The position numbers and the translations under genes are program-made. A stretch of DNA of 62,709 nt, counting the filler, from Basidioascus undulatus (taxonomy: Eukaryota): NCBI GenBank assembly GCA_000826855.1. It is 11 parts of 11 records of this genome, joined end to end, with 100 filler letters (N's around TTAATTAATTAA, not from the genome) between each part and the next. Parts side by side here need not be neighbours in the genome. Positions count along the whole stretch, not along the records: positions 3,816 to 28,462 come from JTLS01000234.1; 10 more parts are not named here. One strand, given 5' to 3'. Positions 1,128 through 8,411 of this stretch are shown one piece after another. Below the pieces are notes generated by a model, which saw only the letters and a list, made by a program, of their open reading frames with translations, was not told the DNA's origin and made no database searches. The number at the start of each line of letters is the position of its first letter. The stretch's first letter is position 1.

Positions 1128-3715
1128 CGTGTGGGCGAGATGGGGAGTGAAGATGTGGGTGAGAAGACGGCGAGGCGAGGCAAGGCGAGGCGGATCGAAG
1201 CCGCTGAAAGTTCGTGAGAGGCGCTTACGTCGCCGAGAGTCGGACACGAAGCGCCAAACATGCAGTTTGTCACCTCAGACGATGTTCTGATTTAGGTCCA
1301 AATCTTTTATCCGAGAGTACGAATTCCTTTTGAAACTGGGCGACCCAGCAACCACCTGCCTGGCGGCATGCGGATGCGACGGCTAACGACCGCAGCAGTT
1401 TGAAGCGAAAATCGTTCGTCATCCCTGCCGACGCGAAGCGTCTATTCACATTTCGAATAGTACAATAATTTAAAATCAAACCTGTTCGAGCAGGTGTCCA
1501 TGTTTCAGCTATGTCTGAAGTGCGTAACAACATAAGAGCCTGTATCGCCATGTCGTTGCCCAGCCGTCCCAAGTATGCCATTCGCAGGCCCAATCACACA
1601 CTGACCAGCCCATGCCTGTAATCCCCTTCTCCAACCGTCCCCAGCAGAGATACATTGATTTCCACGCCCTCTCTGGGGCCCCATGGCCACCAAAAGCCTG
1701 AAAGTCGCGGCAGCTGGCGGTACATGTCTGTCGTCAGCGCACGCGGAGGATGAAGAACGAAGAAAAGCAGCATACCCAGAACCGAAATGAGTCCACATCA
1801 GGAGCGTTCCGGCTGTGTACCACTTATACTCTACGTGTTGTGGAGGATGCTGAGTGAATGATGCATGGGCGAGTGACAAGAGAGGCGCACCGGTACCGGT
1901 TTCGCGGTGCCGTGCAGGGGTTTACTGAGGGCTGTGCACAGCACTGCGAGGACCGGAAGGACACGTAAGGTCCTTCAGGGACTTTGATCTTGGATAAACG
2001 AGTGATAAGCGACTGACCAAGCCAGCCCAGCATCAGTACGCTGTGAACACCCGCATGCGTAGCCACAGTGGCCATCGGTTCTGTCTGATGGGGGATGCTA
2101 TAGCGGAGACTGTAGGGTCAGACCTCACATAATGAACAAACTGAAGAATGTCCCGACTAGAAGGCACTTGCAGGATGAAGATCCAGATCCATGTGAGGCC
2201 TGCGAAGACCGCGGCGGCTACGAAGACGTTTACTGGGAAAACGGTTGGGTCCTCTCAGCAGAATGAAGCCCTCGGGAAAGAAGGAAGGACTTTACTCATG
2301 CTCCTGTGATGGTCGCCTTGCGGAGAGTCAACACCGACAAGCAGGCTGGTCTGCACTATGGCGAGGATCACGGACAAGACCACGTTACATTTACCGTCAG
2401 CTGCAAATAGTACTTGAGCTATAGGAACAATCCTACGTGTGAACTTACAGTATAAGCCTAACCGCCTGAGGTCGTAAGGTCCCTTGAGCGGCGGCTCGGC
2501 CTTCCGACGAGTAGCTCTCCCCCCGCAGACGCGGCCAGCTCGGAGACGTGGGCCCTCCACATCGCATTGCCTTTCATACCCTGCCGAAAAAAGAGGAAGA
2601 GGAGAAATACGAATGTTCCGCCATCTGAGATGGGGACCGCGAGATGAAGACATGCTGGGCCAGGTTTGCGGAGGACGGCTCACACGCTATGGAGCAGATC
2701 CAGGCGAAAGTGTACACGGCTGGGGCGAGGTGGAACAGAGTCATAGCGGAGGAAATTGGGAGGTTTGATTGAATGTGAGTTTGTTATTAGGAAAGAAGGT
2801 TGGAATGATTGGCACAGGAAAGACGATAACTGAGCCGCCCTCCTCAGCCGCTCCTTCCCATCACAATCAAAGGCGACTCCCTAACACGTATAATCAGGGT
2901 CACCACCAACACTCGCAAGCGGTCCCCTGCCTTTCCCGACCGCTCGCCTGTCGAGGCTTGCCCCCAGCCAGAACGGCAGTGTGACCAGAGCAAGGCGGTC
3001 TGCACTGCGGTTGTAGTGAGGGAGACGACTGATGTGCTACTATGAGAAAGTGTGTCTCGTTTGGAGGATGGATGGGGCGAAAGTAATGTGTAGGGCGGTG
3101 AGCGCGTGTGTGGAGGTGATGAGGATGCTTGGCCGCGGTGGGGGAGCTGCCGGTAGGCGACATTGTGTGGGAAGGCGCTGGTCGTGGAGCAAGAAGAAGA
3201 GGGAATTGGGAGTGTATTAATTGCTCGGAAATATATCAAAGATACTGAATTTCAATTTGGTCGCATACAGCCCGCGAGGAAACAATGACCAGTGCAGGTT
3301 GTGCTCCCCGCTGCCACTTTCAGCTCAGAGATCGATAGTGGAAGCTACCTTCTCCAATCCAAGGATTTATTTGCTTCTGTTTTACATTCCAGCGAAAGTC
3401 ATTGTGCATAAGCACTCCGGAGTGCCAACGTGCAACGCAAGACCCGATCTGTCGTACCTGTCATCCTGTACCACACCGGGTCCGGATGCCCATCAGCCTC
3501 CTATTCCCGCTCAAGCGTCCAAAAGTTCCGATGAATATCAGTTCAGCGGGTACAGCTGTTTTGATAGAGTGTCAAAGCAGAGCCGATATTTGTGGATCTT
3601 GATGATCAACGTTGAAATACAACGTTGTTGGAGATTGAGAGGACGATCTAGCCTTTGACACCACTTTGACGGTTGACACCTCCTTTCGTCGCTGAACCCT
3701 TTCATCGCTTAGTGG

Positions 3716-3815
3716 NNNNNNNNNNNNNNNNNNNNNNNNNNNNNNNNNNNNNNNNNNNNTTAATTAATTAANNNNNNNNNNNNNNNNNNNNNNNNNNNNN
3801 NNNNNNNNNNNNNNN
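3716..3815. other. Artificial contig linker N44-TTAATTAATTAA-N44 (stops in all six frames)
   Basis: Identical 100-nt spacer also at 28463-28562, 32278-32377, 36092-36191, 39902-40001, 43709-43808, 47513-47612, 51315-51414, 55114-55213 and 58913-59012. Confidence 0.98.
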
Positions 3816-4229
3816 TCATAGACCCGGATTGTGCACCACTCTTCTGCCACACGAGCCGTATGGGCGTTGCTTCCAGCGGGCTTTTACGTCGGCAGTGACT
3901 GACGTGCACCGCACAGGAGGTTGCCTCGCGCGACCTCAAGCGTACCGCAGGGCATAATACGAAGGTCTTGAACCCCAACAGTGCTACCCGTCTCTCTTCT
4001 CAAACCTTTTTGGGGGTATTCAACTTGGACAACATGGATAAGGTTCAGTTGGGTTCAAGTTCTTGTCGTGTCGGGGGCTGCCCGGTGTCCACGCCGGAAT
4101 TTACGCACAAATGCAGGGGACGGGAGGCGTACACTAGACTAGAAAAATCTGCATGGATCTACCAAGCGAGAGCGACTCCTTTGGAGCTCGAGGCCGGGAA
4201 ACCAACACAAACGGTCGCAGGCCTGGCGG

Positions 4230-4740
4230 CTAGTGGAAGGGCTTTTCGGTCTGTGGGGTGATCCGGACAGCATGGCGCCGCTCGGTACCTTTATAGTCGA
4301 GAATGGCAGTATGGGAAACTAACTGATTGTCCCATAGCATGACGGTACCTGAAGAACGAAGAATGTGAGCACTCTGACGAGAAAAAGGTCAAGACAAAGC
4401 ACATCCACCGAGCCCCTACTTTGCGCGAACCTGGAAGTCGGCCCCTTCGCGAGGTGGCCGCAAAGGAAATTGAGGAGGTTTTCGCTTTCCTCTTTCTTCC
4501 AGCCAACGATCGAGCGGGAGAAGGCTGGGTTTACTCACAGCGCACGCTCGCCGGTGACAGCATGGGTGCGAATGAGCGGGTGGACATTCTCGACGGGCTC
4601 GCGGCGGACGTTTCAGCCGATCTTGGCGGAGATGCGCGAGTAGTCGGCCTACAGGTAAAACAAGAACATTTGAGTAAGACTGCTGTTGCTTAAGCGTTGC
4701 GCGAACATGAGTGCCCCAAGCCGCGGAGAAAGATCTCGTA
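4230..4740 (-). pseudogene. TauD/TfdA-family alpha-ketoglutarate dioxygenase (JLP1-like sulfonate dioxygenase), C-terminal half, disrupted
   Basis: ADYSRISAKIG*NVRREPVENVHPLIRTHAVTGERAL*VNPAFSRSIVGWKKEESENLLNFL...ADFQVR; GTVMLWDN; ILDYKGTERRHAVRITPQTEKPFH*. In-frame TGA at 4613-4615 and 4535-4537. Confidence 0.88.
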
Positions 4741-4760
4741 CCTGACCTCAATGGCGCCCA

Positions 4761-6201
4761 GGATTCATCCCTGACGTGGTGCTTTATCTGTCTTACTAGT
4801 GTTAGTAGAGGAGCCTCTCCCTCGTTGAGTCTGTTAACGCTTAGCGGGAGCTGCACCTGTATAGACACATCCGCAGAGCTGCCGATTCGACTTGCATTCT
4901 TCTGGGTTTCAAACTAGTGGCCAAATAATCTTTTCCTCCGAGAGGCACCCTGGAACGATGCTGAAGTCTTCTCCTCCAGCGCTTGTGATCTCGTTTCGTC
5001 CTTCCTGGTGAATGGAATCTTGAAAATGCGCGGCATCGGAGGACACCCAGGCTGGAGGTACCTGTTTCTCTCGAAGGCGCCCTCACTCTCGTAGTTCGCT
5101 TCGCAACCTTCTTATGATGCCTCGTGTGTCCTGGCCTTTAGTTATCCGAAATGACACAGCGCGCTGACCCTATCCTACAGCGAGTCCCACGCAAAGCAAG
5201 AAGTGGTTCCGACCCAATGGCTGTATGCTGATTCCATCCAGCTTTCTCTGCCGTTGCTCCCCTACTGTCTGCGTTCGGCTAACACGGCACGCTGGCGTCT
5301 TGTTCGCAGACTATACCGAGAGGGATCAATCGGATTCTCCGCGACGACACCGCGAAGTCTGACATGCATAACCGGTACGCCTTGGCCAAGGGTCTGTAAG
5401 CTTGACAGGAAGTCGCTCAACGGGAGGTGCCCTTTCTCAGTGAGGTCCCATCACTGTAGTGCTGAGTCCTGACCGCCTTCTGGCAGCTCATGATCATTAC
5501 GGCCATCAGCGAAGCCGTCGACAATGGCAGTATCGTTTCGATAGCAGACAACATCTGGGCTTTACCTTTGATGGTCGCGATCCAGGTGCGTGTCACGCCA
5601 ATCTTTTAATTTCGCACAACTCCTAAGGCTCAACGGACCCAGTTCAGGTTGCCTGGGCTAGTCGCAATTCAGGTGCTGTGCGCAACCGGACTGTCAGCGC
5701 GTCGATTGTGCGTACTCCCGTGCCAGGCTCTCACAAGTTTGATAGTTGCCTGAGACCCATGGCCTAAATTGTAGGTTTGTCCAGGTCAGCAGCATTATCG
5801 GAAATAATATGTATCGCTCGGACGATGCTCCCTACTGTGCGTATTCTCTTCTATTCCAGCCGACCCCTGCGGCCCGCCCCCCCAAGGCGTACACTCGTGG
5901 CTGACTTTAGTCCTTTCTAACAGATCACCGCGGCAACAAAGTCAACATCGCACTCATCTGCATGAACCTCACGGTCCGTATCTCCTTTCTCCAATCACGG
6001 TCCACACTACTTGACCTTCAGCTTACTGTTGCGCCCGGGTTCCCAGCTCTACATTGCGACGCACTTCTGATACACTTGGCAGAATCGGCGTCGCGAACGC
6101 ATCTGGAACTCGTGGACGCAGGAGGAAAGAAGCATTATCTCTCCATCTCCACCACTAAGGACGTTGGCACTCACCGTCTCGACTTCCGCTTCACCATCTG
6201 A
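4761..6201 (+). pseudogene. MFS transporter of the allantoate-permease family (SOA1/YIL166C-like), 5'-truncated and disrupted
   Basis: Exon fragments GFIPDVVLYLSY, TSAELPIRLAFFWVSN, GILKMRGIGGHPGWR, SPTQSKKWFRPNG, INRILRDDTAKSDMHNR, QVAWASRNSGAVRNRTVSAS, YRSDDAPY, RGNKVNIAL, WQNRRRERIWN...RLDFRFTI*. Stop at 6068-6070 plus frameshifts. Confidence 0.88.
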
Positions 6202-6830
6202 AAAAGCTGCCAATGGATTGTAGATTTGTAGAGCTCGTCGTGGCAAGGAGATAGTGACGCTTTCGGTTGGTTAGCGGAAGTTCTGTTCGGTCTATAAATT
6301 TAACAATTACGAAAATCCCGACCTGCATCAGTGAACACTGTGTTCCTTGCCGGCAAATGCACCCTTTTGACAGGCTGCGCCGCAGTGTCCGCAACAACGC
6401 GCCATTAACCGTCAGTAAAAGCGAGCGCATGAGGGCAATATCCCTTCCGATTACTGTTATCCCCCACGTCTCATCCGCTTTGAGGGCCATCCCCGGCAAA
6501 CGCGCGGTCATGCAGCCGAGAACGACTCCAAACTGTGAACATAAGCAATACGCACACTCGAGTAGCGCGAATGGGCATGTGGTTGGTATATTACGTGCAT
6601 TGTAAGATCACGAGACGTGCATATGAAAAGCGTCTAAAAGTGCAGTCGAAATAAGAAAAGCGGGCCGCACTGCGCGCGGCGGTCCCCACCGATGCAGCGC
6701 TGCCCTGCGAAACACAATCCGCGTCCCCGTGAAACCCCAATGTCAGTCTAGAAGATCGCTGTACGACAGCCGGGAGTGTAAGCGAGTGGGCATAAGGGAA
6801 AGGGAATGTGGAGAGGGAGATGGGCACACC

Positions 6831-8411
6831 TCATTGCGCCTTGTCCTTCGCCGCGGCGAGCTTCTTCGCCTCCGCCTGCTTCGCCCGGTACGCGTGGTAC
6901 TTGACGTCCGTGCCGAAGATGGTGTCCCACCACTGTGCGCGCGCCCAAACTCGCGTGTCAGCTGGGCGTTTCCGACGAACCAAGCGGGGGGATGAGAAGG
7001 AAGACGCACGCGGAAGGAGGACGAAAAGCACTCCGTAAACTTCTCGTGGTGGTAGTCGTCTGGATTACGCACAAGGATGCCAGAAATAAAAAGAAAGGAG
7101 GGAAGAAAGGAGGGAGGAGGACGTACGGTGCTCAGCGCCCGCCCAGAAGGGGAGGATGTTGCGGAGGGACCACCTGTGCGCATTCGTTCCTCGTCAACCT
7201 CGGCAATTGCAATCCACCCGCAGAAGACGAGACGCACGGGAAGTCGTAGCCCGAGTGGGCATCGACGGCCTGGAAGAGGCGGAGCGTGATCCAGATGTAC
7301 ATCGTGAGGATGTGCAGGTTCCCGAAAGCGGCCGAGTAGAGGATCGGCCCGCCAATCGTTCCAAAGCCGGTGACCATCACCTCGACGGGGTGCGCGTACT
7401 CGGCGGTCTGATTCCAAGCCATCAGTGTGGGGTGTCAGAAGGAGAGGAGGGAGGAAGAACGGGAGACGGATCAGGAGGCAGAGGAGAGGAAGACGCACGA
7501 GACCGAACGGCGCAGAGTACTCGTGGTGGAGCTTGTGGATGTGCTTGTACAGCGGGCCGTAGTGGAGCGCGCGGTGGAAGAAGTAGTGCCACGTGTCCTC
7601 GAAGACAAAGAATGCCGCGAGCTGGTACGCCATCGTCGAGAGCTGCGGGAAGGGCAGCTGGTACGTCTGCATGCCGAAGTGCTCGGCGATACTGCATTCC
7701 CCGAACAGAAACGTCAGTATCGTAGATTCGAAATCGAAGAAATGGCAAGGAGGAGAAGGAGAGTGAGAGGGGAGGAACAGGGCAGGGAATAGGGGAAGAA
7801 AAGAAGACGCACGGGTGGAACAGCCAGATCTGGGGGAGCTCGATCGTCAAGTGCTGGAGTAGGACGAGCTTGGTGCATCGCCACTGGGCCTCAGGCGAGG
7901 GGGCCTTGTGCTGAAAGATAACGGAAAGCGTGCATAAGCGGAGCGCAGGGAAAGGGGGACGTAGGAGGGCAAGGCAGAAAGAAGACGCTGGACGGCGGAC
8001 GCACAGGCTGCAGCTTCCACTTGCGGAAGTAGGGGATCGCATCGATGATAATCCAGGGGAGCGAGCGGCCGAAATAGACGATCTGGTTGTGTGTGGGTTT
8101 GTAGGTGTAAATTGGTCTGTATACGGAGGAAAGACGCGTGTGGCGAGGGGGTGGGCGGCGACTACTGACCTCGTGCATCAGGAAGCTCATAACGCCCGTC
8201 GCAATAACGGGGTTGCCCCACCACACATACCATGCCATCCAAAGCTTCGAGCGTGTAAGTCCACGATATATCAAGTGAGAAACACTGAACTCACCTTCTC
8301 GAAGAAGTTAAGGCTCGGAACGTCGATGCCCGCGTACAGGTCCGCGCCCTGCACCGCAGGCGGCGCGAGGAAGCTCGCGGTGGAATTTTGGAGGTAGGCG
8401 AAGGCGTCCAT
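6831..8411 (-). CDS. ERG25: C-4 methylsterol oxidase, multi-exon
   Basis: [113 protein letters not shown] (histidine boxes). Confidence 0.96.

Follow-up and report, generated by a model that had tools for sequence, protein, structure and literature searches.

TauD-type enzymes carry an HxD...H iron triad and an arginine that binds 2-oxoglutarate, and the Jlp1 sulfonate dioxygenase frees sulfite from aliphatic sulfonates. Jlp1, TauD and AtsK are Fe(II)/2-oxoglutarate dioxygenases of this kind (PF02668), and Jlp1 is described, in the available part of PMC5857272, as the sole verified fungal sulfonate dioxygenase, in a family that may also use sulfate esters. Soa1 from S. cerevisiae and AstA from A. 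nidulans are proton symporters of the Dal5 family. In basidiomycetes and Eurotiomycetes, JLP1 orthologues have been reported to be co-located with a transporter of this type (PMC5303821 and PMC6901960, in the passages available, both citing Kensche 2008). For instance, CNAG_01499 and CNAG_01500 are clustered in Cryptococcus (C. neoformans), according to the same passages of PMC6901960, and in the accessible portion of the PMC5922974 supplement the R. toruloides genes RTO4_10225 (YIL166C) and RTO4_10226 (JLP1) have consecutive identifiers. A dead relative of the transporter has been described as well: YOL163W/YOL162W of S. cerevisiae, an inactive SOA2 leftover (PMC5303821, sections available), is a 5'-truncated, stop-interrupted Soa1-family gene with a working paralogue in the same genome.

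A locus of Basidioascus undulatus holds the remains of one member of each family. It was studied in a stretch of 62,709 nt (the window), which consists of contigs strung together by N-spacers, and it lies about 400 nt from the start of contig G000:C1490 (window 3816-28462; contigs are mostly given below by their C number alone). The spacers (3716-3815 and nine other places) are 100 nt long, with two N-runs flanking a 12-nt linker, and join unrelated contigs, so neighbours across a spacer are not genomic neighbours. The DNA of 3820-6500 occurs once in the assembly (32.1 Mb, 2,992 contigs), and in the contig linkage search neither end of C1490 overlapped another contig. To the right of the locus there is a convergent ERG25-type gene (stop 6833-6831), followed by ICE2. 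Four copies of this ERG25-type sterol C4-methyl oxidase gene are present in the genome (window 6831 to ~8400 on the minus strand, G000:C2866, C2970 and C2752); they are 64–88% identical in exons, and in run X3 the copy in the window shows splicing. A hybrid genome with an intact homeologue was considered and rejected, as 6500-12000 matches only the three further ERG25 copies (64–88%) and the ICE2 neighbour is unmatched.

As shown in Table 1, the 3' parts of the two genes stand head-to-head on opposite strands of this one contig, as an earlier sequence-only reading of the same DNA had described. On the minus strand, 4230-4755 retains the 3' third of a TauD/Jlp1-type dioxygenase gene; this stump has three stops and one frameshift, lacks the HxD motif, and is placed by the spliced alignment in profile columns 264-382 only. 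The plus-strand stump (4762-6201) keeps the 3' 60% of a Soa1-family MFS transporter, columns 219-572 of a 574-column profile, and has suffered three internal deletions as well as two stops and four frameshifts. The lesions bear out the earlier view that both genes are dead.

Table 1. Coordinates of the features of the B. undulatus locus, counted along the window
Feature	Position	Strand	Particulars
Last TauD exon	4230-4348	-	distal His and Arg motif retained; natural stop 4232-4230; Pfam TauD 237-267/267, spliced alignment
TauD intron	4349-4408	-	spliced alignment
TauD exon, columns 264-344	4409-4648	-	stops 4615-4613, 4537-4535, 4418-4416; frameshift ~4446
TauD intron, 93 nt	4649-4741	-	GT donor, AG acceptor; read by eye
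Possible remnant of preceding TauD exon	4742-4755	-	four codons like A-V-E/D-Q of P0001/P0005, 2-nt insertion; read by eye
Head-to-head joint of both stumps	4756-4758		no repeat, no clear microhomology; spanned in runs X1 and X2
MFS acceptor and five exons, columns 219 to ~345	4759-5395	+	stop 4797-4799; frameshifts near 5072, 5113, 5324
MFS introns within 4759-5395	4801-4864, 4917-4979, 5124-5180, 5223-5309	+	spliced alignment
First MFS internal loss (columns ~317-320)	near 5323	+	4-5 codons gone
Second MFS internal deletion (columns ~343-397)	5396-5486	+	91 nt against ~55 codons expected
MFS exon, columns ~405-438	5487-5585	+	spliced alignment
Third MFS internal deletion (columns ~439-460)	5586-5637	+	52 nt against an intron and ~22 codons expected
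MFS 3' exons, columns ~462-572	5638-6201	+	stop 6068-6070; frameshift near 6132; natural stop 6199-6201
MFS introns within 5638-6201	~5708-5774, ~5837-5923, ~5974-6046	+	spliced alignment

The dioxygenase stump belongs to PF02668 by sequence, with Pfam TauD matches at 4445-4603 (33.9 bits, cut-off 27 bits) and 4230-4388 (E 2e-4, profile 237-267/267). The 70-codon piece 4439-4648 matched seven proteins among 11 candidates, all seven with PF02668 and 48–65% identical, and the solved structures that it matched, 13 in number, belong to 2-oxoglutarate dioxygenases (TauD and AtsK among them), with taurine dioxygenases and AtsK matching best. The stump shares with Jlp1, TauD and AtsK the C-terminal third, the distal histidine and the arginine motif, but it is without the HxD motif and the N-terminal two thirds. 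The HxD iron ligands stand at about profile columns 206-208, that is, in the absent part, and the stump fails as a working TauD/TfdA enzyme, the HxD region being outside the retained columns. The intron at 4649-4741 was left uncalled by the aligner, which read through it in frame, and the exon remnant beyond it is short and could be a chance resemblance. For the transporter, the piece 4870-5073 matched 52 proteins among 69 candidates, 44 with MFS_1 and eight short ones without a listed domain. Thus the two family names of the sequence-only reading, TauD/JLP1-like on the minus strand and SOA1/YIL166C-like on the plus strand, were well chosen, the best matches lying within the TauD and Soa1/Dal5 families; what is retained of the dioxygenase is its 3' third.

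Membership of the Soa1/AstA family (Dal5-type MFS) is supported through relatives of the stump, which shares 57% identity with P0057 (XP_009540388) across the columns aligned and is 61% identical to P0022, at or above the family cut-off of Holt et al., 40% identity over 90% of the HSP to the query. In the available part of Holt et al. (PMC5303821), XP_009540388 has SOA1 as its best hit (43%) and stands in group 5 (row 618, between the headers of group 5 and group 6), and the tested members of groups 4 and 5, when expressed in yeast, gave poor growth on every sulfur source but methionine. The likeness to Soa1 and AstA is therefore the 57% identity to XP_009540388, while the difference is that the nearest listed relative of the stump falls in group 5, not group 2. 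From YOL163W/YOL162W the stump differs in being fused to a dioxygenase stump, in its probable placement in group 5 and not group 3, and in having a matching 5' half on another contig. It had also been proposed that the two genes formed a sulfonate uptake module; the Soa1 family and the Jlp1-type family stand, and carriage of sulfonate by the permease is an extrapolation, because its nearest named relative is in Holt group 5, whose tested members gave that poor growth in yeast.

Neither stump would be functional even without its stops, because the HxD ligands are absent from the dioxygenase and columns 1-218 from the transporter, which with its stops, frameshifts and internal deletions also falls short of the full 12-helix frame of a working carrier. 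The locus has no start codon, no promoter, no intact frame and no complete active site, and with its introns retained, its frames disabled and its starts absent it has the marks of an unprocessed pseudogene. It is a scar and yields no product. That the stumps are retained because they are of use, for example as a regulatory RNA or as the source of a short peptide, is extremely improbable: run X3, which looks spliced and has spliced joints over ERG25, does cover the locus at 5735-5851, and only there, by a 207-nt contig of depth 3.45, but this piece contains intron sequence, and both stumps have lesions throughout, about as dense as those of other dead paralogues.

The stumps are separated by about 3 nt, and not by the roughly 20 nt that had first been read, because the TauD intron and remnant extend to 4755 and the MFS acceptor is 4759-4761; with this spacing, no shared promoter with sulfur-regulated motifs is present between them. 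No repeat longer than 13 nt was found among the flanks, and none longer than 6 nt at the joint. Two DNA runs were compared with the assembly at contig level. The joint is crossed by a single contig in run X1 (10,271 nt, depth 46.4, against 46.7 for the neighbour) and in run X2 (3,693 nt, depth 19.1, against 17.9), and over ~3850-7544, which these contigs cover, there are 0 differences, and no indel, loose end or joint is listed within the locus, although both runs may be the assembly's own source. Run X1 also contains 6.5 kb of sequence to the left of C1490. The junction of the sequence-only reading is thus spanned, at contig level. That the locus is an assembly chimera or a product of sequencing errors is very improbable; the assembly is fragmented and the check may have drawn on the source data, but two contig sets span the locus in full agreement with the assembly, their depth matching that of a neighbouring single-copy contig, and the same aligner placed no lesion in seven of the eight control permeases or in C142, C2677, C2359 and C2177.

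Neighbouring genes of these two families probably stood at the locus before it broke, chiefly on the argument that a break joined at random would hit a Jlp1-type gene only rarely. The locus shares with the known co-located Jlp1 and Soa1-family pairs the adjacency of the same two families, here head-to-head, and differs from them in the death of both genes and the loss of the promoter; the published comparison concerns gene adjacency and identifiers, not strand. The title of Kensche 2008 is said to refer to divergent transcription. An ancestral neighbouring pair, which the sequence-only reading took to be divergent, is indirectly supported by RTO4_10225/10226, by CNAG_01499/01500 and by a second pair in the same genome, on C99 (5200-9750), where a TauD gene and a Dal5-family permease gene diverge 730 nt apart with the intergenic stretch retained and both genes decayed (2 frameshifts; 2 stops and 6 frameshifts; the TauD gene aligns to column 382). 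A close relative of the C99 permease bears the name 'alternative sulfate transporter'. Against the pair, tblastn found TauD near Soa1-type genes at 0/68 metagenome loci, and at 0/20 of those with >2 kb upstream, the positive control being found. These 68 are the Soa1-type loci among 78 returned from the best 80 of 130 relatives, the ten others (L210-L219, 24–32% identity) being left out of this count, and an HMM search of all 78 detected no TauD. The intact paralogues of both families in B. undulatus also had no partner in the flanks fetched, and the R. toruloides pair may correspond to C2677 and C2359 instead of the window locus. In one of the metagenome contigs (L193), from another fungus, a Soa1-family gene carries one stop and five frameshifts, so decay in this family is not unique to the B. 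undulatus genome.

The 5' halves and the promoter had been considered lost, which is correct at the locus and incorrect for the genome as a whole, as orphan 5' pieces are present on C29 and C2916. At least five Soa1-type loci were found: C142 and C2677 are intact, C2318 is a full-length pseudogene with six frameshifts and one stop, the window locus has the 3' part only and C29 the 5' part only; paralogue counts are lower bounds because the genome searches score best candidates only. The C29 piece (2308-3351, plus strand) is the orphan 5' half of a Soa1-family pseudogene, with its own start and columns 61-213, between PLPBP upstream and NTR2 directly downstream, and it ends five codons short of the column where the window stump begins. 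The chance of such an end is 1–4% if ends are uniform, a value computed after the match was noticed. Over the same columns, the C29 stub and the window stump have about half the introns of the paralogues (5 vs 11/9/8 and 6 vs 14/11/10), shortfalls that taken singly are not significant (Poisson p 0.10 and 0.055). Their lesion densities are 2.0 and 2.3 per 100 codons and their identities to P0022 are 62% and 61%. In half-protein trees both halves fell beside C142 with poor support, and a similarity-profile test of the match recovered only 1/3 true control pairs. Of 24 candidates in a search with the C29 piece, a single protein matched, P0060 of R. kratochvilovae, and in the tree it falls with C2677 and with neither stump.

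These observations bear on a plain deletion, in which a divergent pair would have lost the shared promoter together with the 5' half on either side of it (~2.5-3 kb estimated) and C29 and C2916 would be other paralogues that decayed independently. We regard this as a serious possibility, short of probable: a single event would account for both the joint and the orientation, truncated or decayed members are frequent in both families (11/17 loci broken), the MFS stump itself bears three more deletions, only 126 nt lie between the end of the C29 stub and the apparent stop of NTR2, as expected after a 3' deletion, and a reciprocal joint is absent. Such a deletion, however, would make the C29 end five codons before the stump a matter of chance, and the matching low intron number and lesion density of C29 coincidental too, and it requires that the ancestor had another copy from this subgroup. 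The earlier statement that one deletion inactivated the pair is not supported in the form given, since there are several deletions, their order relative to the stops is unreadable, and the C29 half fits to within five codons.

For the dioxygenase, C2916 (~6312-6830, minus strand) carries an orphan 5' piece from a TauD gene of the window stump's subgroup; the piece spans columns 54-137, no start codon was seen in it, and the ~2 kb that follow gave no Pfam match. When P0001 served as query, the window matched best for the 3' part and C2916 for the 5' part, and the two matches did not overlap. The C2916 piece ends ~120 codons short, and its 81 codons contain 0 stops or frameshifts, compared with 4 in the 119 codons of the window TauD stump (p ~0.07-0.12). 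Upstream of it is a weak TauD-like 3' remnant (score 68, reached by 1/60 shuffles, with real-sequence controls at or below 63), so the C2916 piece could be a separate gene. A linkage of C2916 through the HNT3 contig C2917, which has the next number, was tried and dropped, as contigs are numbered largely by size and C2917 has no TauD or Soa1 remnant; CDT1 was not found in the contig linkage search. The hunt for remnants comprised 20 region/profile/strand tests, with 3816-4229 and 5396-5486 outside them, and gave four scores above small shuffle sets (6-15 shuffles), the best of which was not significant on retest. Neither a TauD remnant before or after the C29 stub nor an MFS remnant flanking the C2916 piece was detected, so more than two breaks are needed if the two pieces are displaced halves.

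Gene order was compared with R. toruloides at PLPBP, GLY1 and HNT3 (ERG25, ICE2, UTP7, TRM10 and NTR2 lay outside the comparison), and the R. toruloides neighbours of these three genes, in the available part of PMC5922974, differ from those in B. undulatus. Gene order unlike that of R. toruloides at each neighbour tested would suit an inversion or translocation in which the two genes never formed a divergent pair: one break in each gene would have joined the 3' stumps, and a later break would have parted the 5' halves onto C29 and C2916. This directly yields the complementary C29 end and the head-to-head orientation, and it agrees with the unpaired state of the intact paralogues and of the 68 metagenome homologues. 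We nevertheless consider it unlikely, because a chance strike on a Jlp1-type gene is not expected when both families are neighbours in relatives, the C29 stub is not followed by TauD sequence, and the breaks share no repeat.

The reading to which we lean, tentatively, is that a neighbouring pair was broken and re-joined with its centre partly displaced, to C29 and perhaps to C2916. The ancestral neighbours would have been, most simply, a divergently arranged Soa1-family permease and Jlp1-type dioxygenase. Judging from the known families, the permease may have imported an organic sulfur anion by proton symport during sulfur starvation, and the dioxygenase may have released sulfite or sulfate through Fe(II)/2-oxoglutarate-dependent hydroxylation. 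The pair would have been dispensable because paralogues remain. Breaks within both genes would then have been end-joined without long homology, fusing the 3' stumps. The 5' half of the transporter most likely survives at C29, from 2308 to ~3351, and the TauD 5' part on C2916 may, on weaker grounds, be the other displaced piece. Small deletions, frameshifts and stops would have accumulated before or after the joining, an order that one genome does not reveal.

The decay extends beyond the window. Seventeen TauD-family loci were aligned and six were dropped (C571, a 3' piece near a contig end, and C2315, C1297, C33, C2377 and C445, which are distant with a poor profile fit). Seven of the 11 Jlp1-type loci assessed are broken (window, C2916, C656, C2791, C179, C99 and C2247), one frameshift is the only lesion of C1523, and the other three, C2359, C2177 and C2783 (the last seen over columns 97-382), look intact. 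Adding the C99 permease and the Soa1-type loci, five in number, gives 17 loci, of which 11 are broken, against 1/8 other Dal5-family permeases under the same alignment method, the lesions outside the window being read from the assembly sequence alone; the Fisher p for this excess is 0.03, and treating each stump and its stub as one gene raises it to 0.07. C2318, C656, C2791, C179, C2247 and C1523 are full-length or near full-length Soa1- and Jlp1-type pseudogenes with 0.8-1.6 lesions per 100 codons. The broken permease among the eight controls is C402:1-5000 (minus strand), with a stop and a frameshift, of which only columns 74-283 were aligned.

The search for intact paralogues that the sequence-only reading had suggested returned two of Soa1 type (C142 and C2677) and three of Jlp1 type, among which C2359 matches Rhodotorula paludigena P0004 over its whole length. 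The names of the homologues and the very small exons suggest a yeast of the Microbotryomycetes, probably of the Sporidiobolales. C142 (L039:2017-5840, minus strand) and C2677 (L089:3195-6500, minus strand) have ~30 introns in ~515 codons, with several exons of 3-10 codons; the 42 metagenome Soa1-family homologues that were aligned have 0-12 introns. As intact paralogues remain, the locus in itself implies no loss of sulfonate use and no phenotype.

The locus is a case of ordinary gene decay, and both the pairing of the two families and dead Soa1-family leftovers are already in print. A literature search, with subscription papers mostly outside it, turned up no report of such pseudogenes in Rhodotorula and none that deals with RTO4_10225/RTO4_10226. 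The complementary 5' half indicates that a head-to-head fusion of stumps need not mean a plain deletion, and the excess of broken Jlp1- and Soa1-type genes predicts a narrower range of organic sulfur sources. A more speculative and doubtful extension is that a multi-break rearrangement shattered a sulfur-scavenging pair, leaving both 5' halves on C29 and C2916, amid a lineage-specific collapse of the sulfonate and sulfate-ester scavenging repertoire, with 11-12 of 17 such loci broken against 1/8 other Dal5-family permeases. If this is true, dispensable, co-regulated starvation genes would be where the genome broke, which would suggest a move of the organism to a sulfur-rich niche.
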